DNA from: Botryllus schlosseri
Taxonomy: Eukaryota
Assembly: GCA_051294905.1 (NCBI GenBank)
Contig: CM119371.1
Location: 4,838,001 to 4,902,000 of the forward strand
Reading direction: 5' to 3'
Length of the DNA stretch: 64,000 bases
Shown here: positions 6,008 to 39,955 of the stretch, piece by piece
Position numbering within the stretch: position 1 is the stretch's first letter
How the letters are laid out: each line of letters opens with the position of its first letter
Notes under the pieces: generated by a model
Database searches by the model: none
What the model was told of the DNA's origin: nothing
What the model saw: only the letters and a program-made list of their open reading frames with translations
Position numbers and translations under genes: made by a program

Positions 6008-7198
6008 TAGGGTGGAGTGAAAATGACTTTTTTTTTTCAAATCTAAAAACGGGCTTCCTCAATCCTGACAAATGACCTAAAACTTCAATAAAAAGTGACT
6101 TCAGGGTATTACCCCCATTTTCCAGCCGGCAACCCCCCAATTTCTGCGCGTGGGGGGGGGGGGGGGGTAAAATGGCCCATCTCGGCAACCGCTGGTCGTA
6201 GAGTCATGATATATAGCTCAAAATCTGCGGAAGCATCATGTTTCTATCTGTCTTAAGAAGAAAGTTTTCTCTATTGTGAACACGAAATGAGTTATAGCCA
6301 AAAAAACAATATATACACACATTTTTGTTGAAATTCAGCATTTATTCTGACGAATTGTGATCCGTCATCATTTTTTTGGAAAGAAAAGTAATATACTGAC
6401 TCGTGGTATGCCTTTGCTTCCAAGTTCAACTTTGGGATATGCAAAGGCATATCACGAGTTGGTTGATATTGAACCTTATCAACAACTTCCTCCAGCGATT
6501 GAGCACTTAACTGATGAAGACTTAAAAGAATGCCGCGAGAAGCCTCTGATTTTGTTTCATCCATGCCACAATCAAACAGTGGAATGACATGTAAAGCTCG
6601 TAACAGAAGCATCAGCACAAGTTTCGGCATTTGAAAGACGAGAGAGATGGCCTCATTCGGCAAAAAATTAAGTCTCGTAAACTGATGAAAAAATTCGACA
6701 CAAAAATGCATTTTCGATAAGTCGTTAAAGGTGAGTTTTTCATTACGATGTTTTGAACCGATTTTAAAAGGTCTGTGTTGTGAATATATTTGTATCATGA
6801 GCCCAATATTCGGTATTGTCAGTGTATTACTTTTCTTTTCAAAAAAACTGATGACGGATCACAATTCGTCAGAATAAATGCTGAATTTCAACAAAAATGT
6901 GTGTATATATTGTTTTTTGGCCATAACTCATTTTGTGTTCACAATAGAGAAAACTTTCTTTTTAAGACAGATAGAAACATGATGCTCCGCAGATATTGAG
7001 CTATATATCATGATTCTACGACCAGCGGTTGCCGAGATTGGCCATTTAACCCCCCCACGCGCCGAAATTGGGGTGTTGCCGGCTGGAAAATGGGGGTAAT
7101 ACCCTGAAGTCACTTTTTACTGAAGTTTTAGGTCATTTGTCAGGATTGAGGAAGCCCGTTTTTAGATTTGAAAAAAAAGTCATTTTCACTCCACCCTA
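6008..7198 (+). mobile_element. hATm-type non-autonomous DNA transposon with long TIRs and a transposase C-terminal remnant, inserted into the PLK polo-box exon
   Basis: TAGGGTGGAGTGAAAATGAC...GTCATTTTCACTCCACCCTA; ~370-bp inverted ends; perfect 8-bp TSD ATACCCGA (6000-6007, 7199-7206). Internal HPCHNQTVE*HVKLVTEASAQVSAF..RDGLIRQKIKSRKLMKKF resembles the hATm transposase C-terminus. Confidence 0.9.
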
Positions 7199-9838
7199 AT
7201 ACCCGAGCACCCCAACCGAGAAAGTATCCTTGCTCAAGTATCTCCGCAAGTACATGTCCGAGTAATTGATCAAGGTGAGTCAAATAATCTTGTTGCAATT
7301 TTATTGTAAAATAATAAGCGATGTTTCTATACTGATAATCTATAACAATGAGAGGTGGTCAGTAAAGAAGTATTTCCACTTGGTCGGTGTACTCAATGAC
7401 CAGAAACGGTTTTAAGACATGATAAATCTACTTCAAGTAGCAATCAGCGTTGTAGAAGTAGAAGTAACAACTTGAATTTCTATGTAATTTCTATCTAATT
7501 CAAGTAGCAGTTAGCGTTGCTACCAGGTTTTAATGACTTGAGTCTAGGACGGCAAAGACAGCCATTTCACTGTAACTTCGAAGGATAGTAAAGTCGCCAC
7601 ATGATTTGTATTTCGTCTATCAGTCCTGATACTTGGACAATAAGCCCAGAAACTGTTAGACTGAGGACAACTGCGATATTATGACTGCGAGCCATTCTGT
7701 CACTTGAGCATAGTTGAAAAAGTGAGTTGCAGCTGATTGAACTCAAAACTGAATATGAGCATAATTACTCGGACCCGACCCTCTACTCACTGCCTTGGAC
7801 TCGGGCTTGACTCGGTGGTGAATTGAAAATGACTCGACTCACTCGAATCAAAACTATAAAAGTAAGATTGACTTGTGACTCAGAACCTTGTCGCTTGGTT
7901 ACAACCCTGGTTGCTACTCAAGTAGAAGTAGGTATTTGAAAGTATGTAGAATGTAGATTTACTAAGCCTAGTTTGGCAAACAAAACCGGAATGGTTCAAA
8001 ATGATGAGCACTTGGGACAGTGGTGCAAGTGGCAAATCCAACTTCGTTACGGAGCGGCGAATACTAGGGTTGTTCAAAACAATCTTTTATCAGGATTTCG
8101 GTGAATACACTAATGAAATTGTTGGGTTGCCTAAAAAAAGCTGCTCACCAAATTTGACTCGATTTCAACCGATGGATGTGAACGCACTGGAGTTTGAAAA
8201 TTTTAAATTTATTATAAAAATATTGAAAAAATTCAGACTTGGCTGGCAACCCAACGAAATTGTTACGTTGTCTAAAAGAACAATGCTCACCCATCTTTGT
8301 CACTTCAGGACCACAGAAACCTGATTCTGTGTCCTCTGATGGGAGTCGTGACTTACATCGACCAGCAAGCAACTTCACAACCTACAAATTGGAATTGCTA
8401 CAAAACACGGTTACAATTAAAGTCTGGGCACTCAATTACAATGAGTAGAGTTCATGTTGGAAAGACTGATGTTTGAAGACTCTACTTCAGGAGATGATTC
8501 GTGACATGCTCGCTACAGCGAGCAATCTATTTCTATTCGCAAATTTAATCGATCTAACTTATTCAACTGATTCTCATTTGAGCTTAAAGTGAATAAATGA
8601 TTTCATAACATGAATTTGTTTGTTGCCATATTTAAATTCTGTAACACGATTGAATTCGCGTAAAATGATTTCGGATTGTTACGTCTATATGTCCAATGCA
8701 GCTTTGACAGTAAAGCCTTTCTCTTCTAAAGTGTTAATTGAAGTGTATTGATATCTTGCAACAGGATTTGTGTTTGGCGTTACAGTTTTGAGGTATGCAG
8801 CTCTGGTCAAAAGTAGTCTGACCTTGGTACTCGATTTGAAGCAGAAGTCACGAGGTAAATCTTCACTGAATCGTGGGTATAACTAGCTACAGATCAACTA
8901 CAAGTAGATAATAAAATACCTGATAAGTAGTCTAGTAAATAGCCTACTGTAGTTTAAAAAAAATTATTTGGTTCAAGTGACGAGCAGCCCGTTACTAGCA
9001 GTTCATTATCTGCAGCCGCTATTTTCGAAATCGCAAGATGGATCTTCGTAACTCACGCAAAAAGACTACTTACATTACGAATAGTTACAATATTTGAGTT
9101 TGAATCTGACCCTGATACTGGGTGTTTCGGCCATTTGTCATGACAATATCACTCGTAAAAGTGATGCAGACGTACCGTAAGACTACGTTCTACATTTAAA
9201 AATACAAAGTGTGGCAAGTAAGTAGCCACTTGAGTAAGCCTGATTGAGAACGCCGCAAAAGTAGAAGTACTATTGTTACTGACCAACTTTGAAGAATTAG
9301 CGGTGGGTGTTGGTTAAAGATTGACGAAATCTAATTTGTTATGATAAGTTCTCAATCACGGCGCTTGTGTTGGACCTAGTGGCATATTTCTAATATATTC
9401 TGTACTTTTGAAGTTCTGAGAGAAATTAATTTCGTCGACCTATGGGATTTCTGCACCAGAACTTACGCCCGAGCTAAGCCACTTTTGGTAATGATGACTC
9501 TGAGCTAGCCATAGCTGCAAAAACGTCACACTGCAGAACACTGACGTATTGCGATTCACACGTATAGGCCTACATGTTTTTAATTGTTGTACAACTAAAT
9601 TTTCTTTCAATACAACCACATCCATTGTGGTAAAACACTCATTAACCTCGAAGACTTTTCGGATGCCTCTTTCCAAGAGATTTAGGCTCACTAAATTTTC
9701 ACCAAAATATGCAACTGGAACTAGAACTACTCGAAAATAAGTACTAACTAGATTGGTTGTTGTACAAGTCGGCTCTAATTTGGTCGTTAACCCATATTTA
9801 ACCCCTTTGCGTCCCATACTTCAAGGACATAGTTTGTC

Positions 9839-15129: not shown

Positions 15130-15580
15130 ATCTGGATGCATATCAATATGTTTGAGGTCTGCTTTGCGAGTAAATGATTTTCTACAGAAGTCGCATTCAC
15201 GATTTGTGGTGCCAACATGCATATCCATTTGGCGCATGAGATCTCACTTACCAGTAAATGTCACATTTCAAAGTTTCGACACCAGCATGTATGTCCACAT
15301 GATAGTTGAAGCGACTAATCAAGGTGAATGCTTTTCCACATATATCACATTCACGATTTTCGATGTAAGCATGCAAATCCATGTGATGCTTGAGGCTATC
15401 CGTCAAAGGAAATGCTTTCTAACAGAATCACATTTTTGATTTCAGCATGCATATTCAACTTTCTCAATGAATGCTTTTCCACGACATACATCACATTCAT
15501 GATTTTTTATTCCAACATGCTTATCCATATGAAGATTGAGGTAACCTTTCTTGCGGAATGCTTTCCCACATAAATCACAT
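15130..15580 (-). pseudogene. Degenerate continuation of the zinc-finger array
   Basis: [33 protein letters not shown].., ECDICGKAFTLISRFNYHVD.. with indels and stops. Confidence 0.8.
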
Positions 15581-16621
15581 TCATGATTTTTTTATTCCGG
15601 CATGCATATACATATGACGCCTGAGGCCTAAGTTCTGAATGAATGCCTTACCACATACATCACATTCATGATTTTTTATTCCAGCGTGCATATCCATATG
15701 ACGTTTCAGGTCGCACTTCAGCAAAAATGTTTTCCCACATACATCACATTCTTGATTTTTGATTCCAGCATGCGTATCCATATGACGCTTGAGGCTAAAT
15801 TTCTCTATGAATGCTTTACCACATACAACACATCCATGATTTTTTATTCCAGCATGCATATCCATATGACGCTTGAGGTGATTGTTTTCGGTAAATGCTT
15901 TCCCACATACATCACAGTCATGATTTTTGATTCCATCATGCATATTCATATGACGCTTGAGGTGACTCTTCTTGGCAAATGCTTTCCCACATATGGCACA
16001 TGCATGATTTTTGGTTCCAGCATGCATATCCTTATGACACTTGAGGTCTCCCTTCCAGGTAAATGCTTTCCCACATATGGCACATGCATGATTCCTGATG
16101 CCAGCATGCATATCCACATGGCGCTTGAGGTTACCTTTATGAATGAAAGCTTTCCCACATACGTCACATTCATGATTCTTGATTCCATCATGCGTATCCA
16201 TATGAAGCTTGAGGCTAACTTTCCGAATGAATGCTTTCCCACATAAATCACATTCACGATTTTTTATTCCAGAATGCATATCCATATGAAGCTTGAGGTA
16301 ACCATTCCGAATGAATGCTTTCCCACATACATCACATTCATGATTTTTGATTCCAGCGTGCAGACCCATATGACGTTTGAGGCCGTGCTTCTGCAAAAAT
16401 TCTTTCCCACATACATAACATTCATGATTTTTGATTCCAGCATGGCTATCCTTATGACGCTTGAGGTCTCCCTTCCAGGTAAATGCTTTCCCACATATGG
16501 CACATGCATGATTTTTGATTCCAGCATGCATATTCATATGAAGCTCAAGGTGACTTTTCTGAATGAATGCTTTCCCACACACTTCACATACAAGATTTTT
16601 CATTCCAGCGTGCTTATCCAT
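15581..16621 (-). CDS. Tandem C2H2 zinc-finger array, 12 intact fingers; possibly a pseudogenised exon
   Basis: 12 x CxxCGK(A)Fx5LxxHxxxH with linker (A/D/S)GIKNH(E/A) on an 84-bp period. Degenerate fingers continue upstream (to ~16720, in-frame TGA) and downstream after a 1-nt frameshift in a T-run near 15590. Confidence 0.85.
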
Positions 16622-16729
16622 ATGGTGCTTGAGATTACTCTTTCAACTGAATGCTTTCCCACGCATATAATTTTTATTGCTAGCATCAGTAGCATAGATA
16701 TTCTTATGAAGCTTGAGAAAGTTTTAGTA

Positions 16730-18335: not shown

Positions 18336-21300
18336 CCCTAGGGTGTACCAGAATTTTCAAAGGGTGTACCACTCGGATGGGGTGTACAGGGGTGTACCAG
18401 ATCCGAATTACAATAAGCCGATGGCTAGCTATCACAAATGCAGGTATATGCGTCAGTACAGGGCAGTTTCTTTTTTACATGTCAAAATTTGTCAAAATTT
18501 TGTCAAAATTGTAGCGTTAGGTCAAAATTTGTCAAAATTGTTCATAAAGTCAACATTTTTTTGACGTCTTTATTTCGTTTGTATCGTAAATTTTGCACAG
18601 AAGATCCAAATCATCGCGGCTCATTTGGTAACTCGGTCAAAGATCCGTGATCACGTGCAGAGTTGGATATTACAACATTTTAATTCAATTACAAGTACAA
18701 TTACTTCCTTGCATGTTTTATTAAAATTACAATTACAATTACTCAATGCTGAAATATCAAATTACAATTGCAATTACAATTACTTTTAAACAGGTCATTG
18801 ATTCAATAAAGATCGAGGTGTTCTTTGACTACCGTAGCGACGTATAATTAGCAACAATCTCAAGCTATTCATGTTTAATTCCTGATATGTAGAATACCCT
18901 TTAACTAGAAAAAAATCGTATTCGTACGTATTCGAACTATTCCTAATCATGAGTACTGATAACTACAAGCACCGAAAAATGTTTCAAGCGAATGTTAAGA
19001 ACAAAACGTTTGAGCGACTAACAGCGAATAGGCTACAGGACAGTCAATGAAATGTAATCAAAGGATTAGGCTACTCAGAGCTGAGTGAGGATAATGAAAT
19101 GTAATTGGTAAGGCGTCAGCGATAAGGATGATTCCGATAAGGTGCGTAAAATTAAAATAACTGCAAAAGGAGAGAACCTCCTGATAACTAAGAATTACAA
19201 TAATTTGGTTCACATTTACATTTCCACTTGGTCGGAAATTGTTTAATTGCATTTGATGAACATTAGGGTGCGAAAAGTTTCTGGCTCCAGTAATTTTGGC
19301 CAAGATTAGGATAACATCTCTGCAAATGCGTGATCAAGTTTGATGAAGCCTAGGTTAAAACTTGAATTTTTTTTCTTATTGTTGCAACAAGCCTCGGTAC
19401 TGGTCAGAGATTTAAAAAAATCGACAATGGTGTAGGAAATGGTTCAGCACAGGTTTCAGAAGAGTTTATTTGCGGTTCATCCATTTTTGAAATATTAAGA
19501 TTTAGGTTAGCCACTGGTTCTCTAACTTTTTTAGACACGCCCCCTTTGTGATAGTGAATATTTCGTGCCCCCCCTGATCGTCATAGCACACAATGAAATC
19601 AGAAAGTTAGCAACACTTACATATAGTTTGAGGGTATGGGTGCATTGCATTCGTTGCCAAATCGATATATGCACCTTCAAACACTTCCACCAGAGAGCCG
19701 AACTCTCTCTGTTTCAAAGCGTGAGCGCACAAGTATAAAATTACGGTCACTTTCTCGTTACAGAGGACATTATCACTTTGAGCTCTCAGTGACATGAGGG
19801 GAAGTCTGGCGTTCGGGGTCATTTCTGAGCGAGCCAATCAGTCCTTCTCCTTTCCTTCCATGGCTGGAAATCAGCACCAATATAGTTACAGAAGTCAGCA
19901 TTGTCAAGTCGATGTTTTTCGCTAGTCCCCTGCCCATGTTTGCCCTGCAAGCATTTCCACTACAAATATGTCCACTCTTATGAAATGCAACCATATTGAG
20001 CTATGTAATGTAGCCCATGTGAAGTCGGTGGATTCGCCCAATGCTAGGCTCAAGTATTCGAAGCGGCTACACGTTTCGGAACATGCGATAAAAGAACGAC
20101 TGACATTGCTGTTACTCTTCTAGTCAAGGTTGATTCGAAATTTGCCTGGTGCTGTTTTCCTTTCGGAAGTATTCTCACAGTTTGTTAGAGTTTAATTGAA
20201 ATGCACCTTCTCAAGCAGATTTCTTGGGTTTAGCGATATTCCAAGCAGTTTTGAACTATGCGACTGTAACGTCGTCGGCAATATTAACGATCTCGAAATA
20301 TGGATTGCTGGGCTTGACATCTAGCTAGCAAAGTCTTTTCTAAGAATCAGGCGATATGTATGACTGCAAAAGAAACTGCCAAGGTAATTTTGAGCTTCTA
20401 CGCTTCATAACGACAACTGCTCTTCGACAAATATTACACATCGGCTTTCAAATTATATCGGAGAAAGCAAATTCATTGTTCAACGCAGAGTTACAGAACC
20501 AGTTTTTGACGTTTAATTTCCCGTTCCTTGTTCTTGTTTTTGTTTAAACCATTCGACGTGAGTGAAATACTCTTGAAAGCTGTACTACGCAGCCGGATTC
20601 CCTTGAACCACAGTCCAGCCGAATACCGAGTCAAAACAATAACAATCTAAACCCGAGCATATAAGTAGTAGGATGGGATGCGTTTGTTACCGCCCCTCAG
20701 GCTATTTAGAATGTAAACACTCTCATAATATAATTAACGTTGGACTGTGCCCGGTCCATGCTTCCGAGAGATAAATAACATTCATTATACGTTAGATGAT
20801 ACTTTTCCTTGATATTCTATTATGTGTATTTAGGACTAATGCGACAACGGTAGACTATCGCCGTGTGTATTTATGAGCATCTCTCGCCGCTACACTCTCG
20901 AAACTTTCCTCCGACAATTTTACGACTTATGATTACCGCGTCAAAACTTACATTGGCACTTTACTTAGTCTCCTTGAAATAGCATTGTATAGTGTACGAG
21001 TTCATTTTATTTCGAAAAAAGAGCATATCAATGATATCGTTGATCGTTATTGCGTCGATTCATTAGCTGAAATCCTCCAGATCGGTTGATGTTTCGAGGT
21101 ACACCGCTTTGCTGCCGTCCGACACTGCGATCCGAGTTCTTGCGTTCGATCTGACCGTTTTGTTTGATGTAGCGATCACTGGCTTGTAGTATATACGATA
21201 CGAGCGGAAGGTCGGGATTATGAACAACTACGCTAGGCGAATAGATGACGAATTCATCAGCTCGCAGTATAACCGCTACCTGTATAATGTTTGCATGTCG

Positions 21301-24129
21301 AGTATAAGGGTATTTAACTCGGCACTAAAATGCCAACGGAATAGCCGCAGGGAGTCGGTTCTCGTTGCTATAATTAAACGAACACCTTCGCCGCAGGTAC
21401 GCGATCACCGACGTTATAATGATAGGGACAAATTAGCCGCATGAAAGCGAGTCTAATGAATATAACGACAGACAACAAGTTAGTTGAAAAGTAAAACTAA
21501 TCGTGACCGATGCAAGACGGCGTGAAACAGCGCTTTCGCTCGATTCTTGTAGTGACCACAATTCATACGATTCAGTCCTTTTCATGTCACTAGAATAAGG
21601 GTGATTAAACCAACAGTGAAACGCCGCTTCACAATTGCAAGTTAGTGTAATGCAAATTTTACCCCTTCAAGGGTTATAAAAGTATGGACGGCAAAAGGTA
21701 TAATTTTGGATCGACATGGTGCCTTAGCTATCTATCAATAGGTATGTAATATTTGTTGAAATAGTTGCTATTGATCATAGACCAAGCTTGCTTTCAGAGC
21801 TGGAAACTAAACGCATATGAAAATTTACCTAGGTGTTCCCCACACGCATCAAATGTAGGCCTACTCAAGTGTTTATGAGGTGGCGAATAGTTCGACGGTT
21901 GTTGGCATGCAAGGACGTCACATAGAATTGTGGAGTTTTCTGTAAACTATAATCCAGTGATCTATTTTCAATCACTATATTTTTCATTAATCTAAACTAA
22001 GTACTGTTAGTAGGCAAACCCTAGGAAAGTATATCCTCTGATAAAAGCAGGAATAATTTGTTATCCGTGAAATAAATAGATGGTGCGACTCTAATGGACA
22101 TAAAGAAATGAACATTTTGTAAAGTAGATATTTTTCGGTATGCTAAATTCGGCTACGCGGTGCTAGACTTCTTGGCCGCATGAAATAGGATGTTTTAGCT
22201 TCAACCTCAACGCATTAGCACACCGAATTTAAATATAGGCGATAAATAATATACAGTAGCTCCAATTTTAATGAAAAAATAAAAATAAAAAAGCGTGAAA
22301 AATTGCATTTATCCTGGAACGCACCAAGAAAAACCGTATGAATTTGTAAAGTAGTTAGAAAACTACACTATTCCGCTACACTAAAGACTTAAACAATCCG
22401 GATTTTGTATGGTGTATACTAATTTTACATTGCGGAGTATTCAGTAAAGTTCAATCCAGTGAATTCGCGTAGGCTATGCATACAAATGAGGAAAGTTACA
22501 TCAGCGCGTGTTAACTAGTTGTATTATGTAGCTTGCAATTCATGCAAGTTTCGAAACTTCCACACTGAGTCTTTTAAAATAGATAGAAACGAAAAAAACT
22601 AATCGAAAAAATTTACGAAGTTTGGATGCGGCATATTTAGGTTTTCTAAAAATTATTCATACCCATGACTCGAAATATTGTTAACTAACTTATCATGTTC
22701 TGAAGTCTCATACATGCACCGACTCTGTGCATTCAATGTAGGGGTAGCTGACTTGGAGACAGAAAAACACACATATTTGACCGTAACATGGTCTTAGTAT
22801 GAACCGACATGCATTCGACTTGTGGAAAAATGTGTCGCAGCGTGTAGTGTACAAATTTCGATGTTGCGCAAATACCACAGACATAAGATAAGCGTGTAGT
22901 GTACAAATTTCGATGTTGCGCAAATACCACGATTTTACATCGAATTATTCGAATCGACTACGTACATTGTATAGGTGTGAGGTGAAATAAAACGGATTTA
23001 CGCAAAAGTTCGACACTAAAACGCATACGGTGTCTTATAAAGTAATAATGTAAGCTGCGATGGATGCTGCTATATAATGCTAGTAGCGAATATAGTAGAA
23101 AGTCCCCGTCCGGATGAATGTAAGCAGGTGCGCTTAGTAACGTAGTAAATCGCATAACAGAATTTACATAAATTGCTACTTCTACCTTAATTTAATGGAT
23201 TTATCTGAGATCATTGCTTTACTTAATCTCTCCAAAATGTGCATTATACAAGTACGTCACCATCGAAACCATCTACCTATAACTAGCTGGCAGTATAATT
23301 GTAGCAAATACTCGAGTACTAATTTTAAAGTAACTTAGATATCTAAATGAGCTCTGAGTCGTTGTTATCTCGCATCTTGTACTTGTATTCGCACTTTACC
23401 TTTACACGTCGTTTTTGTATAATGGATACTAATTTTATTAAAAATACACAAAAAGCGCGAAAAATACATTTTATCCCGGAACGGAGCAAGAAAATGCGTA
23501 TGAATTTTGTAAAGTAGATATTCTATTCTATTATGTGTATTTAGGGCTAATGCGACATCACTATGTTAGCGACAGGCCTGATTTGAACACACTAACTTTG
23601 CAAATTAAACTTATCACCCACCACGAACACTCAATGAAGAGCACCCTGGAGCACCCTCATAAATGCTCCACAATTCGTGACGTATAATATACTGAGCATA
23701 TAATAAGCTGACAAAACTGATACTTGAGTACTCCGAAATGCACAAGTACTTTACCTTTACACGGCGTTTTTTGTAAAATGAATACTAATGGTACGCGAAT
23801 GATCATAGACTAAGCTTGCTTTCAGAGTTGGAAACTAAATGCATACGAAAATTTAACTATGTTTTCCCCTCACGCATCAAATGTAGGCATACTCAAGTGT
23901 TTATGAGGCGGCGAACAGTTCGAAGGTTGTTGGTATGCAAGGACGTCACATAGAATTGTGGAGTTTTCTGTAAACTATAATCCAGTGATCTATTTTCAAT
24001 CACTATACTTTTATTAATCGAAACTAAGTACTGTTAGTAGGCAAACCCTAGAAAAGTATCCTCTGATAAAAGCAGGAGTAATTCGTTATCTGTGAAATAT
24101 ATAGATGGCGCGCAATATGAGCGGTGTTA

Positions 24130-25935
24130 CGAATATAACAGAATTACCATGCTAATATGTGACTCATCACCTTGAAACTAGGTACGTAGTTGTAGGACAT
24201 TGTGATTATGTAGAATACCAAATTTCCTCGTACATTTCATGATGGAACTTTAAAACTAACGCGACTCTACAACGACTCTTTGCGTACATCTGTTTTGCGG
24301 GAGCGTATATAGCACGTACCCATACATACCCAACTTTAATAACGGAATTACCATGCTTAACATTGAATCCAAACTCTAAACTTGATACGAACACACTAAT
24401 TTCGCAAATTAAACTTATCACCCACCACGAACACTCAATGAAGAGCACCCTGGAGCACCCTCGTAAATGCTCCACAATTCGTGACGTATAATATACTGAG
24501 CATATAATAAGCTGACAAAACTGATACTTGAGTACTCCGAAATGTACAAGTACTTTACCTTTACACGACGGTTTTTGTAAAATGAATACTAATGGTACGC
24601 GAATGATCATAGACTAAGCTTGCTTTCAGAGTTGGAAACTAAATGCATACGAAAATTTAACTATGTTTTCCCCTCACGCATCAAATTAGTTGTATCGAGT
24701 TATCGAATGATTTTTTTCTTTACATCAAAATAACTAGAGTGTGTAACTACATTAAAAACGTATCTAAATGAGCTCCAGGTCATTGTGATTATACAGCATA
24801 CTAAATTTCATCACACATTTCATGATGGAACAACTTTAAAACTAACGCAGCTCTATAGCAAGTTTTGCCTAAATCTGTTTTCGGTAGCATGTACATATCC
24901 ATAGTCAGCTTTAATAACAGAATTACCATGCTAATATGTGACTCCTCACCTTGAAACTTGGTACGTAGTTGTAGGACATTGTGATTATGCAGCATACCAA
25001 ATTTCTTCACGCATTTCATAATGGAACAACTTTAAAACTAACGCGGCTCTACATCGACTTTTTTCGAACATCTGTTTTGCGGGAGCGTATAGCACGTACC
25101 TATACATAGTCAACTTTAATAACGGAATTACCATGCTTAACATTGAATCCCAACTCTAAACTTTATTCGTAGTTGTAGGACATTGTGGCAATGCACCATG
25201 CTAAATTTCATCGCACATCTAATGATGGATCACCTTTAAAACTAACGCAGTCGAATACCGACTTTTAAGCATATCTGTTTTGCGTGAACATAGCATATAC
25301 CTATGCATAGTCAATTTTAATAGCAGAATTACCGTGTTAAACATTGAATTCCCACCTTGAAAGTTGGTACGCGATTATAGGACACTATAACAATGCACCA
25401 TACCAAATCCCATCACACATTTCATGATGGAACAACTTTAAAACTAACGCGGCTCTACATCGACTTTTTGCGTATATCTGTTTTGCGGGGGGCGTATAGC
25501 ACGTACTCATACATAGCTAACTTTAATAACGGAATTACCATGCTTAACATTGAATCCCAACTCTAAACTTGATACGTAGTTGTAGGACATTATGGCAATG
25601 AACCATGCTAGACTTCATCACACATCTAATGATGGAACACCTTTGAAACTATCGCAGTCGAATACCGACTTTTACACGTATCTGTTTTTCGTGAACATAG
25701 CATATACCCATACATACTCAATTTTAATAACAGAATTAGCATGCTAAACCTTAAATTCTCACCTTGAACGTTGATACCCAGTTGTAGGACATAATAACAA
25801 TGCACCATACCAAATTTCGTCAGGCATTTCATGATGTAACACTTTCAAAACCAACGCAGTTCTATACAGGCTTTTGGCTAAATCTGTTTTTCCGTAGCGT
25901 AGCACGTACCTATACATAGTCAACTTTAATATCAA
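24130..25935. repeat. ~203-bp tandem repeat with ~407-bp dimeric higher order (left arm)
   Basis: 'atgatggaac..tttaaaactaacgc' recurs at ~24240, 24822, 25018, 25222, 25424, 25629, 25830; subtype motifs recur at ~407-bp spacing. Confidence 0.85.
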
Positions 25936-27955
25936 TACATGTTTATCGTAAGTCCTACACAGTCATGATATCCGGCCGAGTTTGACTTTTAGAAAACATT
26001 ATACCGACATCGCGACATCTTACAAAATTGAAACCGCGGTGACTGCTTGAGAGACCTACCAGTGATATCGCGGTAATCTAGTTACTTCCACAAAATAGTA
26101 TGTATTCAACTTACTTTCCACAAATCTAACGCGCAAAACAATTTACTTTGCTAACGAAAAGTGCTGAGTCATCATATCATTATCCACGCAACAATACACC
26201 TAAAACATACTATCGTACAAAATGGTCGCTAACCTCTTTGTGCACCAGCTGTAAATCTCACAAGCAACAAGTTTCAAGATTCCAGTTATTGCGCCAAGTC
26301 GTTATGTTGACGAAAGCGTATATTGTAATATCATGATCGATTTGCATTCGTTGGTCACAAACTGTCACTACTCTAAATAATTATTTTTCACTCAAACACA
26401 ACAGCATACTTGTCGCCATTCGTTTTCATCAAGCACGAGTTCAATAAACTTACTTACTACGACATGAATTGGTATTTTTATGTTGTGTAAATAGGTAATA
26501 ATTAATTTTAGTAACACTATACCAACATCATCGAGTTGTGCGAATAGATTTACATGTGGTGTTATGGTTTTAATCGAAGTACACTGCACGATCTAATGTA
26601 GAGTCATCTCTATTGTATAGCAACTCGGTAATCGAAATGCATGCATTAACATTTAAACAGCGATCGTGTTTCGTCACGCGAAAAATATAATGCGATACTC
26701 TGCACAGGGCATGCAAATCCTTTTCACACTCGTAATAGTATACCAACGGCTACCGGCGACAACGTTTAACAATACCAACGACACTAAACATACGATACGT
26801 ACCCAATCTGCAAATTCTTTCGATTTATTCTGTCCGTTTCAATTTAAGATAAGGAAGCCCATTTCACTCAATGTATCGATGCCTACGGTACTCTACAAAT
26901 TTTTCTGATTAATTCTCCCTATGCTTATTTATCACAAGAAAGATGATTTGACACCTAAAGTACGAAATACTTTTTCGCTTGAACTAAGCCGCAGCGCCTG
27001 GAGTGGAATTTTACGGGGTATGTGGACTCATTTCGTAGGGCTCTATACCATAGGAGCATACTTTACGCTCCAATTCGATTCCCACACATTCCATATAATT
27101 ACTAACAGAACCATTGAGTACCAGCCTTGACATTTTCCGTAGTACTAGATGGCATGTATACAATTTCACGACATCCGACATTACGACGAAGACTATCAAA
27201 ATATCGAAAGAAGCCCTCTATTCTTTTCTGAAATAATCAAGGTTTTATCAGGACTTCCCTTCATATAAACTCCAGCAGAATCACTAATAACCTCTCAAGT
27301 GTACTCAATTTACTCTAATTTGATACTCGTGTACCAAATCCCTATTTTCCGCAAGTATGATAGAGGCTATCGCTCGATACTCAACGATTCGTAATTTTGC
27401 TGGAATACAAGTACAATTAGTTTAAAGTAGTTTGAGGTTACGTTTGTATCACCTTGACAAGTGCTATTATCAAAAAATGCTTTTGCTAAACTCTTACACT
27501 TTCACTAAACTTCTACACTGAATCTTGTAAAGTAGATAGAAAAGAAAAACTATTAACATAAGGTAAGTGAGAAGCACGCAAATTTCGATTGCATACAAAT
27601 GTCACAAACTGCGCTAACTTCCAGAGTTGTTAAGTATAGAAGTACTCGTACGTCTTGAGTATACCCAAGTAGGTTTTTTGCCTACATGTACCAAATACTC
27701 TCAAGTCCTTATGATATTGGAGTACATCAACTTCATGATAGCTACAGTATTAAACAGAAATAGACCTAGAGTACTAACGTTTTTGTGCAGTGAGAGTTCG
27801 CAAATTATCGAAGTATTTTTGTTATTTTTATTGCGATAAGTCATTCTGCAGCGCAAAAATGCGTCGTAGGATATAGATGAAACTAGCACCTCTCATCAAG
27901 ACCGCTGATAACAGTACATTTCAACATAAAAAGCATAAAAAACATTCCCGCGCGC

Positions 27956-27998
27956 GTCTTAGTATTAGGTGGTAGGGTAGGAAGTGTTAGGTTTAGGA
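27956..27998 (+). other. 43-bp asymmetric G-rich spacer at the palindrome centre
   Basis: GTCTTAGTATTAGGTGGTAGGGTAGGAAGTGTTAGGTTTAGGA: one C, six G-runs, three TTAGG; clamped by CCCGCGCGC/GCGCGCGGG. Confidence 0.9.
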
Positions 27999-30018
27999 GC
28001 GCGCGGGAATGTTTTTTATGCTTTTTATGTTGAAATGTACTGTTATCAGCGGTCTTGATGAGAGGTGCTAGTTTCATCTATATCCTACGACGCATTTTTG
28101 CGCTGCAGAATGACTTATCGCAATAAAAATAACAAAAATACTTCGATAATTTGCGAACTCTCACTGCACAAAAACGTTAGTACTCTAGGTCTATTTCTGT
28201 TTAATACTGTAGCTATCATGAAGTTGATGTACTCCAATATCATAAGGACTTGAGAGTATTTGGTACATGTAGGCAAAAAACCTACTTGGGTATACTCAAG
28301 ACGTACGAGTACTTCTATACTTAACAACTCTGGAAGTTAGCGCAGTTTGTGACATTTGTATGCAATCGAAATTTGCGTGCTTCTCACTTACCTTATGTTA
28401 ATAGTTTTTCTTTTCTATCTACTTTACAAGATTCAGTGTAGAAGTTTAGTGAAAGTGTAAGAGTTTAGCAAAAGCATTTTTTGATAATAGCACTTGTCAA
28501 GGTGATACAAACGTAACCTCAAACTACTTTAAACTAATTGTACTTGTATTCCAGCAAAATTACGAATCGTTGAGTATCGAGCGATAGCCTCTATCATACT
28601 TGCGGAAAATAGGGATTTGGTACACGAGTATCAAATTAGAGTAAATTGAGTACACTTGAGAGGTTATTAGTGATTCTGCTGGAGTTTATATGAAGGGAAG
28701 TCCTGATAAAACCTTGATTATTTCAGAAAAGAATAGAGGGCTTCTTTCGATATTTTGATAGTCTTCGTCGTAATGTCGGATGTCGTGAAATTGTATACAT
28801 GCCATCTAGTACTACGGAAAATGTCAAGGCTGGTACTCAATGGTTCTGTTAGTAATTATATGGAATGTGTGGGAATCGAATTGGAGCGTAAAGTATGCTC
28901 CTATGGTATAGAGCCCTACGAAATGAGTCCACATACCCCGTAAAATTCCACTCCAGGCGCTGCGGCTTAGTTCAAGCGAAAAAGTATTTCGTACTTTAGG
29001 TGTCAAATCATCTTTCTTGTGATAAATAAGCATAGGGAGAATTAATCAGAAAAATTTGTAGAGTACCGTAGGCATCGATACATTGAGTGAAATGGGCTTC
29101 CTTATCTTAAATTGAAACGGACAGAATAAATCGAAAGAATTTGCAGATTGGGTACGTATCGTATGTTTAGTGTCGTTGGTATTGTTAAACGTTGTCGCCG
29201 GTAGCCGTTGGTATACTATTACGAGTGTGAAAAGGATTTGCATGCCCTGTGCAGAGTATCGCATTATATTTTTCGCGTGACGAAACACGATCGCTGTTTA
29301 AATGTTAATGCATGCATTTCGATTACCGAGTTGCTATACAATAGAGATGACTCTACATTAGATCGTGCAGTGTACTTCGATTAAAACCATAACACCACAT
29401 GTAAATCTATTCGCACAACTCGATGATGTTGGTATAGTGTTACTAAAATTAATTATTACCTATTTACACAACATAAAAATACCAATTCATGTCGTAGTAA
29501 GTAAGTTTATTGAACTCGTGCTTGATGAAAACGAATGGCGACAAGTATGCTGTTGTGTTTGAGTGAAAAATAATTATTTAGAGTAGTGACAGTTTGTGAC
29601 CAACGAATGCAAATCGATCATGATATTACAATATACGCTTTCGTCAACATAACGACTTGGCGCAATAACTGGAATCTTGAAACTTGTTGCTTGTGAGATT
29701 TACAGCTGGTGCACAAAGAGGTTAGCGACCATTTTGTACGATAGTATGTTTTAGGTGTATTGTTGCGTGGATAATGATATGATGACTCAGCACTTTTCGT
29801 TAGCAAAGTAAATTGTTTTGCGCGTTAGATTTGTGGAAAGTAAGTTGAATACATACTATTTTGTGGAAGTAACTAGATTACCGCGATATCACTGGTAGGT
29901 CTCTCAAGCAGTCACCGCGGTTTCAATTTTGTAAGATGTCGCGATGTCGGTATAATGTTTTCTAAAAGTCAAACTCGGCCGGATATCATGACTGTGTAGG
30001 ACTTACGATAAACATGTA

Positions 30019-31824
30019 TTGATATTAAAGTTGACTATGTATAGGTACGTGCTACGCTACGGAAAAACAGATTTAGCCAAAAGCCTGTATAGAACTGCGT
30101 TGGTTTTGAAAGTGTTACATCATGAAATGCCTGACGAAATTTGGTATGGTGCATTGTTATTATGTCCTACAACTGGGTATCAACGTTCAAGGTGAGAATT
30201 TAAGGTTTAGCATGCTAATTCTGTTATTAAAATTGAGTATGTATGGGTATATGCTATGTTCACGAAAAACAGATACGTGTAAAAGTCGGTATTCGACTGC
30301 GATAGTTTCAAAGGTGTTCCATCATTAGATGTGTGATGAAGTCTAGCATGGTTCATTGCCATAATGTCCTACAACTACGTATCAAGTTTAGAGTTGGGAT
30401 TCAATGTTAAGCATGGTAATTCCGTTATTAAAGTTAGCTATGTATGAGTACGTGCTATACGCCCCCCGCAAAACAGATATACGCAAAAAGTCGATGTAGA
30501 GCCGCGTTAGTTTTAAAGTTGTTCCATCATGAAATGTGTGATGGGATTTGGTATGGTGCATTGTTATAGTGTCCTATAATCGCGTACCAACTTTCAAGGT
30601 GGGAATTCAATGTTTAACACGGTAATTCTGCTATTAAAATTGACTATGCATAGGTATATGCTATGTTCACGCAAAACAGATATGCTTAAAAGTCGGTATT
30701 CGACTGCGTTAGTTTTAAAGGTGATCCATCATTAGATGTGCGATGAAATTTAGCATGGTGCATTGCCACAATGTCCTACAACTACGAATAAAGTTTAGAG
30801 TTGGGATTCAATGTTAAGCATGGTAATTCCGTTATTAAAGTTGACTATGTATAGGTACGTGCTATACGCTCCCGCAAAACAGATGTTCGAAAAAAGTCGA
30901 TGTAGAGCCGCGTTAGTTTTAAAGTTGTTCCATTATGAAATGCGTGAAGAAATTTGGTATGCTGCATAATCACAATGTCCTACAACTACGTACCAAGTTT
31001 CAAGGTGAGGAGTCACATATTAGCATGGTAATTCTGTTATTAAAGCTGACTATGGATATGTACATGCTACCGAAAACAGATTTAGGCAAAAGTTGCTATA
31101 GAGCTGCGTTAGTTTTAAAGTTGTTCCATCATGAAATGTGTGATGAAATTTAGTATGCTGTATAATCACAATGACCTGGAGCTCATTTAGATACGTTTTT
31201 AATGTAGTTACACACTCTAGTTATTTTGATGTAAAGAAAAAAATCATTCGATAACTCGATACAACTAATTTGATGCGTGAGGGGAAAACATAGTTAAATT
31301 TTCGTATGCATTTAGTTTCCAACTCTGAAAGCAAGCTTAGTCTATGATCATTCGCGTACCATTAGTATTCATTTTACAAAAACCGTCGTGTAAAGGTAAA
31401 GTACTTGTACATTTCGGAGTACTCAAGTATCAGTTTTGTCAGCTTATTATATGCTCAGTATATTATACGTCACGAATTGTGGAGCATTTACGAGGGTGCT
31501 CCAGGGTGCTCTTCATTGAGTGTTCGTGGTGGGTGATAAGTTTAATTTGCGAAATTAGTGTGTTCGTATCAAGTTTAGAGTTTGGATTCAATGTTAAGCA
31601 TGGTAATTCCGTTATTAAAGTTGGGTATGTATGGGTACGTGCTATATACGCTCCCGCAAAACAGATGTACGCAAAGAGTCGTTGTAGAGTCGCGTTAGTT
31701 TTAAAGTTCCATCATGAAATGTACGAGGAAATTTGGTATTCTACATAATCACAATGTCCTACAACTACGTACCTAGTTTCAAGGTGATGAGTCACATATT
31801 AGCATGGTAATTCTGTTATATTCG
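30019..31824. repeat. Mirror copy of the ~203/407-bp array (right arm)
   Basis: Reverse complement of 24130-25935. Confidence 0.85.
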
Positions 31825-34800
31825 TAACACCGCTCATATTGCGCGCCATCTATATATTTCACAGATAACGAATTACTCCTGCTTTTATCAGAGGATACTT
31901 TTCTAGGGTTTGCCTACTAACAGTACTTAGTTTCGATTAATAAAAGTATATTGATTGAAAATAGATCACTGGATTATAGTTTACAGAAAACTCCACAATT
32001 CTATGTGACGTCCTTGCATACCAACAACCTTCGAACTGTTCGCCGCCTCATAAACACTTGAGTATGCCTACATTTGATGCGTGAGGGGAAAACATAGTTA
32101 AATTTTCGTATGCATTTAGTTTCCAACTCTGAAAGCAAGCTTAGTCTATGATCATTCGCGTACCATTAGTATTCATTTTACAAAAAACGCCGTGTAAAGG
32201 TAAAGTACTTGTGCATTTCGGAGTACTCAAGTATCAGTTTTGTCAGCTTATTATATGCTCAGTATATTATACGTCACGAATTGTGGAGCATTTATGAGGG
32301 TGCTCCAGGGTGCTCTTCATTGAGTGTTCGTGGTGGGTGATAAGTTTAATTTGCAAAGTTAGTGTGTTCAAATCAGGCCTGTCGCTAACATAGTGATGTC
32401 GCATTAGCCCTAAATACACATAATAGAATAGAATATCTACTTTACAAAATTCATACGCATTTTCTTGCTCCGTTCCGGGATAAAATGTATTTTTCGCGCT
32501 TTTTGTGTATTTTTAATAAAATTAGTATCCATTATACAAAAACGACGTGTAAAGGTAAAGTGCGAATACAAGTACAAGATGCGAGATAACAACGACTCAG
32601 AGCTCATTTAGATATCTAAGTTACTTTAAAATTAGTACTCGAGTATTTGCTACAATTATACTGCCAGCTAGTTATAGGTAGATGGTTTCGATGGTGACGT
32701 ACTTGTATAATGCACATTTTGGAGAGATTAAGTAAAGCAATGATCTCAGATAAATCCATTAAATTAAGGTAGAAGTAGCAATTTATGTAAATTCTGTTAT
32801 GCGATTTACTACGTTACTAAGCGCACCTGCTTACATTCATCCGGACGGGGACTTTCTACTATATTCGCTACTAGCATTATATAGCAGCATCCATCGCAGC
32901 TTACATTATTACTTTATAAGACACCGTATGCGTTTTAGTGTCGAACTTTTGCGTAAATCCGTTTTATTTCACCTCGCACCTATACAATGTACGTAGTCGA
33001 TTCGAATAATTCGATGTAAAATCGTGGTATTTGCGCAACATCGAAATTTGTACACTACACGCTTATCTTATGTCTGTGGTATTTGCGCAACATCGAAATT
33101 TGTACACTACACGCTGCGACACATTTTTCCACAAGTCGAATGCATGTCGGTTCATACTAAGACCATGTTACGGTCAAATATGTGTGTTTTTCTGTCTCCA
33201 AGTCAGCTACCCCTACATTGAATGCACAGAGTCGGTGCATGTATGAGACTTCAGAACATGATAAGTTAGTTAACAATATTTCGAGTCATGGGTATGAATA
33301 ATTTTTAGAAAACCTAAATATGCCGCATCCAAACTTCGTAAATTTTTTCGATTAGTTTTTTTCGTTTCTATCTATTTTAAAAGACTCAGTGTGGAAGTTT
33401 CGAAACTTGCATGAATTGCAAGCTACATAATACAACTAGTTAACACGCGCTGATGTAACTTTCCACATTTGTATGCATAGCCTACGCGAATTCACTGGAT
33501 TGAACTTTACTGAATACTCCGCAATGTAAAATTAGTATACACCATACAAAATCCGGATTGTTTAAGTCTTTAGTGTAGCGGAATAGTGTAGTTTTCTAAC
33601 TACTTTACAAATTCATACGGTTTTTCTTGGTGCGTTCCAGGATAAATGCAATTTTTCACGCTTTTTTATTTTTATTTTTTCATTAAAATTGGAGCTACTG
33701 TATATTATTTATCGCCTATATTTAAATTCGGTGTGCTAATGCGTTGAGGTTGAAGCTAAAACATCCTATTTCATGCGGCCAAGAAGTCTAGCACCGCGTA
33801 GCCGAATTTAGCATACCGAAAAATATCTACTTTACAAAATGTTCATTTCTTTATGTCCATTAGAGTCGCACCATCTATTTATTTCACGGATAACAAATTA
33901 TTCCTGCTTTTATCAGAGGATATACTTTCCTAGGGTTTGCCTACTAACAGTACTTAGTTTAGATTAATGAAAAATATAGTGATTGAAAATAGATCACTGG
34001 ATTATAGTTTACAGAAAACTCCACAATTCTATGTGACGTCCTTGCATGCCAACAACCGTCGAACTATTCGCCACCTCATAAACACTTGAGTAGGCCTACA
34101 TTTGATGCGTGTGGGGAACACCTAGGTAAATTTTCATATGCGTTTAGTTTCCAGCTCTGAAAGCAAGCTTGGTCTATGATCAATAGCAACTATTTCAACA
34201 AATATTACATACCTATTGATAGATAGCTAAGGCACCATGTCGATCCAAAATTATACCTTTTGCCGTCCATACTTTTATAACCCTTGAAGGGGTAAAATTT
34301 GCATTACACTAACTTGCAATTGTGAAGCGGCGTTTCACTGTTGGTTTAATCACCCTTATTCTAGTGACATGAAAAGGACTGAATCGTATGAATTGTGGTC
34401 ACTACAAGAATCGAGCGAAAGCGCTGTTTCACGCCGTCTTGCATCGGTCACGATTAGTTTTACTTTTCAACTAACTTGTTGTCTGTCGTTATATTCATTA
34501 GACTCGCTTTCATGCGGCTAATTTGTCCCTATCATTATAACGTCGGTGATCGCGTACCTGCGGCGAAGGTGTTCGTTTAATTATAGCAACGAGAACCGAC
34601 TCCCTGCGGCTATTCCGTTGGCATTTTAGTGCCGAGTTAAATACCCTTATACTCGACATGCAAACATTATACAGGTAGCGGTTATACTGCGAGCTGATGA
34701 ATTCGTCATCTATTCGCCTAGCGTAGTTGTTCATAATCCCGACCTTCCGCTCGTATCGTATATACTACAAGCCAGTGATCGCTACATCAAACAAAACGAT

Positions 34801-35530
34801 CAGATCGAACGCAAGAACTCGGATCGCAGTGTCGGACGGCAGCAAAGCGGTGTACCTCGAAACATCAACCGATCTGGAGGATTTCAGCTAATGAATCGAC
34901 GCAATAACGATCAACGATATCATTGATATGCTCTTTTTTCGAAATAAAATGAACTCGTACACTATACAATGCTATTTCAAGGAGACTAAGTAAAGTGCCA
35001 ATGTAAGTTTTGACGCGGTAATCATAAGTCGTAAAATTGTCGGAGGAAAGTTTCGAGAGTGTAGCGGCGAGAGATGCTCATAAATACACACGGCGATAGT
35101 CTACCGTTGTCGCATTAGTCCTAAATACACATAATAGAATATCAAGGAAAAGTATCATCTAACGTATAATGAATGTTATTTATCTCTCGGAAGCATGGAC
35201 CGGGCACAGTCCAACGTTAATTATATTATGAGAGTGTTTACATTCTAAATAGCCTGAGGGGCGGTAACAAACGCATCCCATCCTACTACTCATATATCAA
35301 GAAACCAGAACACACCAAAGAATGAGTAATCAATCGAAACAGAGACGGGGCGATAAGAGAGTTAAGTAGCTAAATTAATATGTAACAACACTGTGCTATA
35401 ATAGTAATTGCGTTAATAATGAAAGATGTCGCGGGCCGCAAAATATACGTCTGCGGGCCGCGGGTTGAGAACCCCTGATATAAACTGACTATATTCGAAT
35501 TCAACTTCAAAACAAAAGGTTTGGTTAAGG

Positions 35531-36203: not shown

Positions 36204-36941
36204 GGTTAAGGTAAGAACAGAGAACAGAAATAGAATTTTGCTATCAAATTACTTTACTGAACTAGTTTACTACAACGTAAGCTGTAAGCTTCGATCACTT
36301 CGTTTGATGTCAATTTATTTGTGATAGGCAATGGAGGCTCAGTAACACGCACTATCGCTGAATGATTGGTCGCTCTCACGGATTACACCATCTTTTCGCG
36401 AACAATCCGACCATTTGCAAGATACAGTGATTTTTATCGACACCGATTACTTGATGACTTGAAATTGACTCGTGAATTTCGCTCCGAGTCACGAGTCAAT
36501 CCACATTTCTGATACGCCGAGTCAAGTCAAGTCAAGTCATTTTAGAAAAGTGACTCGAGTCAAGTCAAGTCATACGAAAAAGGTGACTCGAGTCATCCTA
36601 ACACTGTAATTACCAAAGCGAGGATCGTTATCAAGAAATCGCGCGCGCAGATCGTATTACAGCACGGCGGAGATGCCTCAATTTTGCGTTTAAATATGAA
36701 CAGCGAAAATGCGTAAATGATTTAGCCTGTTGCCTTTTGTAGCCTGTTGCCGGTTATTGCACATGATCTGGATTAAATTTATTTCAAATCAATGTAATTT
36801 CTACTGTCTGCTAAGATGGTGTAGTATTTTGATGAGTGGAGATAGTTAAGACAAAATAACGCTCGAGCTTGTGCGATTGTATCTCTTGAATAACAGCGGC
36901 CCGGCGCAGGCCCAGTCTGCAACCAAAAAGCATTCCCACAT

Positions 36942-37890
36942 CAGTGTTGGGATCAAGTCACTACCTTCGAGTCACGAGTCATTTCGAGTCATTGCACATT
37001 TTGACTCGAGTCAAGTCAAGTCAATCTATTTTCGAAGGTGACTCGAGTCAAGTCACTCGATTTTTGGAGGTGACTCGAGTCAAGTCGAGTCAAGTCAAGT
37101 CAAGTCACGAGTCAAGTCACAATTCAAGTCAAATTGAATTTTCGAAGTGAGAGTGATGATGCAAAGTCACAACATTTTGCCAGTTGTGTGAAAAATAGAT
37201 TAATTAGCCATTTATCTTGAATCAAATACCGATTATAAAGTTAAATATACATGCAAAATTGCATTGTATCAAACACGCATACCTAGAACTACTAATAAAA
37301 TACGTGAGTAACTGTATAGGTACATGCTACAGTCTGTTATTTATGTTATTATCAGAGATTCGAATACAAAGCCTCGAGAAGTTCAAACAAATTGATATGG
37401 TACAATACACTACCCAACTATACATCCGGGAATATAAATGCATGAACTATATTCTTTCTATTTAAATAATACAAGATGGTTTATGAAGGTGAGCACTGCG
37501 CAATGTAAGCACTGAATCGTCTAAGAAACAGAGATACGTTGCTATTGATCTGTTTACTACTACGTAAGCTGTGATCATTTCGTTTGCGGCCAATATATTT
37601 GTGATGTAACAAGGGAGTACCAGTGAAACGTACAATAAGTGAATGACTGGTTGCTCTCGCAAGTGTCACCGGCGTATCGCTAATAATCCGAATACACACA
37701 TGATGCAGGGATTTGGTCGACAACGTTTACTTATTAATGACTTGAAATTGACTCGTAAATTTCGCTCCCAAGTCACGAGTCAAACCACATTTCTGAAGCT
37801 CCGAGTCGGGTCAAGTCAAGTCATTTTTGCAAAGTGACTCGAATCAAGTCAAGTCATACGAAAAAGTGGACTCGAGTCATCCCAACACTG
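36942..37890. mobile_element. hAT-type MITE with GACTCGAGTC subterminal repeats
   Basis: CAGTGTTGGGAT...ATCCCAACACTG, perfect 8-bp TSD TCCCACAT. Partial copy at ~36280-36606; related arrays at ~7730-7910, ~58500-58722 and ~61742-62170. Confidence 0.9.
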
Positions 37891-38784: not shown

Positions 38785-39955
38785 CAGGGGTTCTCAACTT
38801 GCCTCGTATAACTGTCCGCATTTTAACAGCCAAAGACCCTGCGGGCCGCAGAACACTATCACCATGTATTTGTAAACGACTATTAAATTAAGAATACTAT
38901 GTAGCTTATTGACCAGTGATATAGGGGCATAGTACATTTTTATGCATTCTAAAGCAATAATGGACAGCGTTCGTAAGTTTGAAGTTGCTGTTTTTTGGAG
39001 AATATATATCTTCCAGTGGCGCAAGTACATCTCTTCACAGAACATGGCCTACATTGCATTCGTTGCCAAGTCGGCATATGCATCTTTACACCCTTCCACC
39101 CGAGAACCGAACTCTCTGTTTCAATACGTGAGCGAACAAGTATAAAATTACTTTTCGTTACAATGACCGTTATCACCTTGAGCTCACAGTGATATGAGAA
39201 GAATTCTGGCGTTCGGGGTAATTTCTGAGTAAACCAATCAACGCTGCTCTTTCATTCCATGGCTGGAGCCCTACACCATTAGTTAGAGAAGTCAGCTTTT
39301 TCAAGTTTATGTTTTTCACTGGTCCTCTCCCCCTACCCACGTTTGCCCCGTCAGCATTTCCTCTGAAAATATGTCCAACCTGATGAAACGCGCCTATATT
39401 AGCTATGTAATCTGTGTGCACTTTGCAGTCGGTGGATTCGTCCAATGTCAGGCTAAAAGTCTACGTTGCAACGTGTTTCAGAGCATATGCGATTCGACTG
39501 ACATCGCTGTTACTCTTCTGGTCACGGCTGAATCAGACAATTGTAGCTTCGAAATATGTCAGCTGATGTTGAACCTGATACTAAGTTCCGGAAACAGCGA
39601 ATATTCGCACAGTAGGCCTACGTTAAAGTTTTATTGAAGTCACGCCTTCACTCGCAGATTCTTGGGCTTACCGATATTTCAAGCAATATTGAGCAATGTG
39701 GCTGTAACGTCGTCGGCAATTTTAACAATTCCTCGAAATATGGATTCATGGGCTTGAAATCTAGCTAGGAACGTTTTCTCTAACATCAGGCGATATGTAG
39801 GCCTATAACTCCAGAAGAAACTATTTGGTGTTATCATTTTAAGCTTCTACATTTCGTTACGACAACTGTTCTTCGACGAATGTGACACGGGTGACAATAC
39901 TTTGCCAGTAGTAATTGCGTTCATATTGAAAGATGTCGCGGGTTGAGAACCCCTG
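38785..39955 (-). mobile_element. Internally deleted hAT (SPIN/GTF2IRD2-like) transposon with transposase remnant
   Basis: TIRs CAGGGGTTCTCAAC/GTTGAGAACCCCTG; alignable to 19640-20430; minus-strand LKKLTSLT..AALIGLLRNYPE. Confidence 0.8.

Follow-up and report, generated by a model that had tools for sequence, protein, structure and literature searches.

Results

Structure of the palindrome

The window analysed here is a 64,000-nt stretch of the Botryllus schlosseri genome (assembly GCA_051294905.1, contig CM119371.1, forward-strand positions 4,838,001 to 4,902,000), and all coordinates below refer to it. Its DNA looks animal-like, poor in genes and rich in repeats, and within it we identified a palindrome with a total length of 14,627 bp (20664-35290) and an unusual, non-palindromic centre. 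The palindrome is real in the sequence: its two arms, each 7,292 nt long, are reverse complements of one another at all but five of their 7,292 positions, and they meet at a 43-nt spacer that is enclosed by the two halves of a 9-bp, GC-only inverted repeat, hereafter referred to as the GC clamp. A first-pass annotation of this DNA, made from the letters alone, had placed the centre of a palindrome at this spacer, and its position exactly on the axis of the two 7,292-nt arms confirms that assignment. The features on which the rest of this work draws are as follows.

20658..20663, + strand: candidate 6-bp target-site duplication CATATA, left copy
20664..20672, + strand: left terminus AGTAGTAGG, an (AGT)2-type end motif
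20664..27955, + strand: left arm, a non-coding repeat mosaic
27421..27907, + strand: 487-nt module of the inner arm, with a family boundary at its left edge
27947..27955, + strand: left half of the GC clamp, CCCGCGCGC, made up of the 9 nt of the left arm nearest the centre
27956..27998, + strand: 43-nt non-palindromic centre, a C-poor, TTAGG-rich loop
27999..28007, + strand: right half of the GC clamp, GCGCGCGGG
27999..35290, - strand: right arm, reverse-complementary to the left arm save for 5 of 7,292 positions
35282..35290, - strand: right terminus, AGTAGTAGG as the - strand reads
35291..35296, + strand: candidate 6-bp target-site duplication CATATA, right copy, identical to the left copy

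The five arm-to-arm mismatches fall at 21155, 22489, 22978, 24003 and 24862, and the inner 3,093 nt of the arms (24863-27955 on the left) are free of mismatches. Along with several internal duplications, the left arm holds a 202-nt tandem array at 24797-25931. Within the 64-kb window we found neither a further copy of the arm nor a source sequence for the spacer.

Ends, target-site duplication and gene content

The palindrome opens with AGTAGTAGG and closes with CCTACTACT, halting at the same base on either side, and the two occurrences of AGTAGTAGG in the window are solely those at the palindrome ends. In the one copy examined, the palindrome is bracketed by a perfect 6-bp direct repeat, CATATA; for a fixed pair, the chance that two random 6-mers from the window are identical is 0.0004. 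PMC8097293 describes vertebrate Mavericks as carrying end motifs of the form 5'-(AG)3//(CT)3-3' or 5'-(AGT)2//(ACT)2-3' along with target-site duplications (TSDs) that are 6 bp long and perfect, as having sizes of ~17 kb that vary by about 10%, and as possessing end repeats that serve jumping-back during protein-primed replication. At the level of sequence, the (AGT)2 ends and the 6-bp duplication of the palindrome match this description of Maverick/Polinton elements, as this copy exhibits both a perfect 6-bp TSD and terminal inverted repeats (TIRs) that start with a reiterated AGT motif. A scan with the 19-nt terminus gave no match in the genomes of viruses or prokaryotes.

None of the 69 arm reading frames of at least 40 amino acids had a credible Pfam match. 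Genes for a protein-primed PolB, a retroviral-type integrase or a capsid protein were likewise absent amongst these 69 frames and the 79 other frames scanned in the window (7 + 72), where the sole match to rve (integrase core) or reverse transcriptase (RT) families is a Ty3/gypsy open reading frame (ORF) at 51732-55763. The absence of genes is expected for a non-autonomous element, yet it leaves the ends as the sole basis for Maverick membership.

The DNA that flanks the palindrome belongs to an older repeat; 19643-20439 together with 35382-35435 resembles a paralogous stretch 4 kb downstream (39052-39942) at 77-78% similarity. This flank paralogue does not provide a clean empty site and is decisive neither way.

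As a control for the reading of target duplications, we considered an unrelated long-TIR element of 1.19 kb located at 6008-7198. Its TIRs of ~390 nt (6008-6400 and 6818-7198) start with TAGGGTGGAG, and it is flanked by a clean, perfect 8-bp duplication, ATACCCGA, at 6000-6007 and 7199-7206, which is hAT-like. A run of 16 G residues is found within this element at 6152.

Composition and folding of the centre

The 43-nt spacer has a strongly biased composition of A10 C1 G17 T15. It comprises three TTAGG words (starting at 27965, 27987 and 27993), one TAGGG (27973) and six G runs of at least two, and by counting we confirmed the content that the first-pass annotation had listed for the sequence between CCCGCGCGC and GCGCGCGGG. 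The three TTAGG words compare with ~0.04 expected for a sequence of that length, and the spacer is the sole site in the window at which at least three TTAGG/CCTAA words occur inside 60 nt. Its poverty in C is also rare, as just 191 of the 63,958 43-nt segments of the window (0.3%) contain no more than one C, or no more than one G, and only three independent places in the window combine this with at least 15 of the partner base. Runs of nine or more G/C residues number 33 in the 64 kb, two of which are the clamp halves; given this rarity, chance is an unlikely reason for a GC clamp to sit precisely where the arms end.

When folded with DNA parameters, both strands of the centre form a 9-bp GC stem that closes a fully open 43-nt loop, with energies of -10.9 and -10.6 kcal/mol (z -3.0 and -3.7), while the spacer folded alone has a minimum free energy of 0 on both strands. 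The single-stranded folding that had been proposed as a check thus leaves the tip of the hairpin unpaired beyond the GC stem. It had also been suggested that G·T wobbles extend the stem on the G-rich strand, and that the spacer echoes the motif found at the palindrome termini. A 9-bp helix between CTTAGTATT and AGTGTTAGG with four G·T pairs does exist, but it was matched by 98 of 1000 shuffled spacers, and the similarity between spacer and terminal motif (15 of 20 positions) was equalled by 157 of 2000. We therefore rejected both the G·T stem and the likeness between centre and terminus as special features, as composition explains them.

The further proposal of a two-tier G-quadruplex survives as a weak motif only. 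A two-tier motif, GGTGGTAGGGTAGG, is present at 27968-27981 and a three-tier motif is absent; two-tier motifs of this sort are frequent here, as the + strand of the window has 45 starts of them, and allowing for a quadruplex in the fold gained only 2.6 kcal/mol, using quadruplex energies that are RNA-derived. The telomere-repeat-like make-up of the loop is real; it might reflect a telomere-like tract that was captured or added, serve as a site for a protein, or form a weak G-quadruplex. The G-rich tract on the + strand runs 5' to 3' away from the left arm, as would an end extended by telomerase, and we treat this as a lead only.

Copies of the centre in public sequencing runs

A search of public sequencing runs listed 20 runs from 10 studies that contain 26900-28100 in whole or in part. 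The arm-bearing runs are labelled as five organisms plus seawater, marine and hot-spring metagenomes, so that the source is probably an aquatic animal of high abundance, or one whose DNA is common in samples of this sort. For four runs, X1, X3, X4 and X15, we compared Logan contigs with 26000-28100, and the evidence on the centre comes from these four of the 24 listed runs alone. In this comparison contig depth does not equate to copy number, contigs convey neither orientation nor long-range structure, and the results are those of the best-supported contigs, comprising the best 24 of 352 loose ends, with 24,079 further pieces beyond them.

X1 alone gave 23,830 contigs on 26000-28100, indicating that the family is multi-copy. 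Its summed depth at the centre was 21,584 at 27949 in the clamp, 19,766 at 27977 and 12,386 at 27989 in the spacer, versus 71,181 at 27855 in the adjacent arm. X15, which stems from another study and carries another organism label, covers the spacer at a depth of 36.6-50.3. In X3, coverage takes in the clamp and extends through the spacer as far as 27977 or beyond (depth 12.8), and two X3 contigs depart from the arm before 28027. X4 does not cover the centre and X3 does not cover 27989/27990; we counted uncovered parts as no evidence.

Of the four runs compared, two (X1 and X15) contain the spacer in slightly varied form, and the same variants recur in both. A loss of 2 nt at 27949 in the clamp is carried by 19 contigs in X1 and one in X15, and a T inserted after 27977 in the spacer by nine and two, respectively. 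The paired substitutions A>T at 27989 and G>T at 27990 occur in 5-6 X1 contigs and one X15 contig, 29-33 nt from the contig ends. None of the best 24 of 352 loose ends falls at 28007, the outer edge of the right clamp half. The spacer is a family feature, being neither an adapter artefact nor a private junction. This agrees with the first-pass annotation, which had argued against a random junction and had predicted that other copies would share the centre; we encountered no unrelated centres amongst the X1 and X15 contigs.

The depth profile of X15 offers a view of how the arms relate to the centre. Six of seven bins across the inner arm (27421-27916) had depths of 54-90 and the seventh 31.5, compared to 36-50 at the centre and 26.7 for 26852-27419, and these depths fit two arms per centre. 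The family boundary at 27421 is visible in three ways, namely in X1 loose ends that lie before 27421, in X4 contigs that end or start at 27420/27421, and in an X4 contig where 27907 runs on into 27421. Further out, all four runs share loose ends at 26139, 26290-26295, 26688-26692, 26748 and 26806. Together with the sequencing depth over 26142-26800, these shared loose ends suggest that the arm contains, at this position and at its mirror, another repeat of much greater abundance.

When metagenome and viral contigs were scanned for exact matches to 21 nt of the spacer, none turned up, and a 20-nt inner-arm word had no match in viral and prokaryote genomes. Two metagenome loci that match the 20-nt inner-arm word (L001 and L002) share no further similarity, and we dismissed them as chance matches.

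Relatedness of the two arms

At six inner-arm positions (26900, 26983, 27047, 27545, 27602 and 27855) the base found in the window is a rare variant, accounting for at most 14% of the depth in X1. It is absent from X3, and also from X4 where that run provides coverage. In X15 it is absent from five of the six positions, and 27545 is mixed, with the other letter making up 28.7 of a depth of 48.1. Both arms of the palindrome carry the window base at all six positions and so have at least six rare variants in common, which makes each arm of this copy the nearest relative of the other. As the centre has a much wider distribution than these rare variants, the arms must have become alike after this lineage had split from the bulk of the family. 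Such homogenisation could have occurred if one arm served as the template for the other, if a hairpin that had snapped back was repaired, or through gene conversion between the arms.

Other features of the window

No tRNA or Rfam family was detected in the window. A C2H2 zinc-finger array at 15461-16662 consists of 14 units of 84 nt and contains a 346-aa open frame on the - strand. The Ty3/gypsy pol ORF mentioned above encodes 1,343 aa and looks intact, with protease, RT, RNase H and integrase domains; in a protein atlas its matches came from a mixture of animal phyla. Arrays of a short palindromic unit based on GACTCGAGTC/AGTCAAGTCA, which repeats every 27-63 nt, are located at 1017-1492, 36525-37132 and 58675-58709, and these three arrays probably belong to one repeat family.

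Discussion

Origin of the palindrome

With moderate confidence, we interpret the palindrome as a non-autonomous, fold-back Maverick-type element whose centre, made up of the GC clamp and the unpaired loop, is an inherited snap-back point. The starting molecule would have been a one-ended fragment of a linear, protein-primed replicon, which may have regained its second end through single-strand snap-back or a polymerase strand switch at a short GC-rich inverted repeat, with the 43 nt between the repeat halves left as an unpaired loop. A short inverted repeat around a non-palindromic centre is what we find at the axis, where a 9-bp GC repeat encloses 43 nt, and PMC7999016 reports that snap-back at inverted repeats as short as 5-9 bp can give rise to large palindromic duplications. 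The resulting genome-sized palindrome would then have relied on a gene-bearing Maverick, acting in trans, for both its copying and its insertion. Upon replication, each displaced strand could fold on itself to yield a 7.3-kb hairpin with a ready duplex origin, and would thereby represent an extreme form of the panhandle model that PMC11886824 puts forward for displaced strands in protein-primed replication. In such a hairpin the GC clamp would fix the register and the non-complementary loop would permit the turn. Once in the chromosome, the loop may also reduce cruciform or hairpin fragility; the risk of palindrome breakage is higher when the spacer is shorter or absent, according to PMC7999016.

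A more specific proposal, which we consider possible but rather doubtful, is that the palindrome is a gene-less, self-complementary 'satellite' of Mavericks. Here nothing of the helper but the end that it uses for replication and integration would remain, doubled up to a palindrome of helper size, the arms would be re-equalised in each cycle, and the loop would be an obligatory turn-around kept by selection. Re-equalisation of the arms in each cycle would explain why the rare variants are common to both. Such a palindrome would be to transposons what snap-back defective genomes are to adenoviruses and self-complementary vectors to parvoviruses.

Several points weigh against the interpretation as a fold-back Maverick-type element. 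The termini and the duplication were seen in one copy only; no second complete copy was recovered, and scans of public collections gave nothing usable. Neither the element nor the window contains a Maverick gene, and no gene-bearing partner with the same ends was found. The rule for end motifs is derived from vertebrates, while the window has a CpG observed/expected ratio of 1.07, which is invertebrate-like. The flank paralogue joins 20439 to 35382 within 39599-39942, and it lacks not only the palindrome but another 224 and 85 nt next to the duplication. Other high-copy repeats are pieced together in the inner arm, with 26142-26800 up to ~10 times deeper in X1, and in one X4 contig 27907 is followed directly by 27421, an arrangement of the module in tandem that would fit satellite-like DNA too. 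Amongst the best-supported contigs, arm, spacer and arm were not seen in a single contig. Lastly, we infer both the snap-back origin and the role of the loop.

Some of these observations would also fit a palindrome made by the host, in which a break or template switch snapped back at the GC repeat and the product was spread by satellite-like or segmental amplification, the end motif and CATATA being coincidental. A short inverted repeat with a non-palindromic centre is the known footprint of snap-back (PMC7999016), the arms are non-coding mosaics with tandem arrays, the inner 487-nt module occurs in tandem in the X4 contig, and the paralogue of the flanks offers no clean empty site. Coincidence would, however, have to account for two sides that stop at the same base, each at an AGT motif that is unique to the ends in the window, and for the perfect 6-bp direct repeat that flanks them, features whose joint chance is very small. 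The two flanks, moreover, are unrelated to one another and are adjacent in the paralogue, as insertion predicts, and we regard a host-made origin as unlikely. That the arms and centre were produced by the sequencing or assembly process, through a hairpin adapter or a fold-back chimeric long read, is suggested by how near-perfect the arms are and by the synthetic look of a GC-clamped, C-poor 43-nt centre. Such an adapter or chimeric-read artefact is extremely improbable, and we take it as excluded: contigs of two runs that differ in study and in organism label contain the centre, where it bears indels and substitutions, it is always joined to the same arms, the arms differ from one another at five sites, and each outer end has a flank of its own plus the target duplication.

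Two explanations assign the centre a function as the tip of a hairpin. The palindrome could be the unfolded, duplex form of a hairpin telomere or concatemer-resolution site of a linear replicon like those of poxviruses, African swine fever virus (ASFV) or parvoviruses, with an imperfectly paired tip and flip/flop isomers, and the first-pass annotation had raised a dedicated hairpin-end or resolution site of this type. Its structure does equal that of an unfolded 7.3-kb hairpin with a 43-nt tip, the composition of the spacer is strongly non-random, and the tip is conserved among copies and across two organism labels. [quoted passage not shown] The tip, however, is unpaired past the GC clamp on either strand, the G·T helix it can form is within the reach of shuffled sequence, and no nickase, resolvase or other gene was found in the 69 Pfam-searched frames of the arm. 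The pox-type resolution consensus is T6-N7-9-YAAAW, and its nearest matches, at 24711 and 31224, are ~3.2 kb from the centre, leaving none within 3 kb. The element is also integrated with a duplication and has open outer ends of the protein-primed type, such that a dedicated resolution site is not supported and a hairpin telomere appears quite improbable to us. We give similarly little credence to a hairpin-RNA gene, an explanation compatible with any origin of the palindrome, in which read-through would generate a 7.3-kb double-stranded RNA with a 43-nt loop as a source of silencing small RNAs against the family. What speaks for it is the structure alone, in which G·T pairs would become legitimate G·U pairs on the G-rich strand, but a G·U helix of this kind is no better than those of shuffled spacers.

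If the interpretation as a fold-back Maverick-type element is true, animals have protein-primed, virus-like transposons that can give rise to parasites which lack genes, are palindromic throughout and attain a high copy number. The family would then provide a natural case for studying how long palindromes arise, stay symmetrical and are tolerated by a eukaryotic genome, and would reveal what a conserved, telomere-repeat-like, unpaired centre contributes. Elements of this kind are traps for long-read assembly and repeat annotation, for which the 61-nt centre plus the AGT-repeat ends would constitute a practical diagnostic.

Comparison with known systems

Formally, the palindrome resembles a duplex copy of what poxviruses, ASFV and parvoviruses have as hairpin telomeres and concatemer junctions, in that a hairpin with an unpaired tip has been written out in double-stranded form. 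It is unlike them in that its tip has no mismatched pairing, its centre has no resolution motif close by, viral genes are absent, and it is integrated with open ends of the protein-primed type. The terminal palindromes of protist virophages and PLVs, as outlined in 10.64898/2026.07.28.741278, differ from the fully palindromic element described here.

The end motif and the 6-bp duplication point to integration machinery other than that of the Foldback-type transposons FB of Drosophila and Galileo, whose target duplications are 9 and 7 bp, respectively. With these transposons the palindrome shares very long inverted arms that bear tandem repeats and have little or no coding capacity (PMC3573991). 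Snap-back palindromes of yeast and mammals have long, perfect arms at a short inverted repeat and a centre of tens of bases (PMC7999016), as does the palindrome. Those palindromes are one-off chromosomal or minichromosomal events, in contrast to the transposon ends, the duplication and the centre common to many copies that are found here. The ribosomal DNA palindrome of Tetrahymena is another palindrome of the snap-back kind.

The closest likeness in terms of ends is to a non-autonomous Maverick/Polinton, with which the palindrome has in common the AGT AGT ends, the perfect 6-bp TSD, the TIRs and a length near that of Mavericks as given in PMC8097293. In the titles and opening lines of abstracts listed for the Polinton literature on foldback and palindromic forms, and in passages of PMC6431247 and 10.64898/2026.07.28.741278, we found no fully palindromic Maverick derivative. 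Unlike those of a typical Maverick/Polinton, the 'terminal' repeats of this element fill it entirely (7,292 of 14,627 bp each), no remnant of a polymerase, integrase or capsid gene lies between them, and the middle is a 43-nt telomere-repeat-like loop. The class of origin, a palindrome belonging to a mobile element, is an ordinary one; it is the form that is unusual, combining full palindromy with a conserved, GC-clamped, telomere-like loop and arms that are kept in concert.

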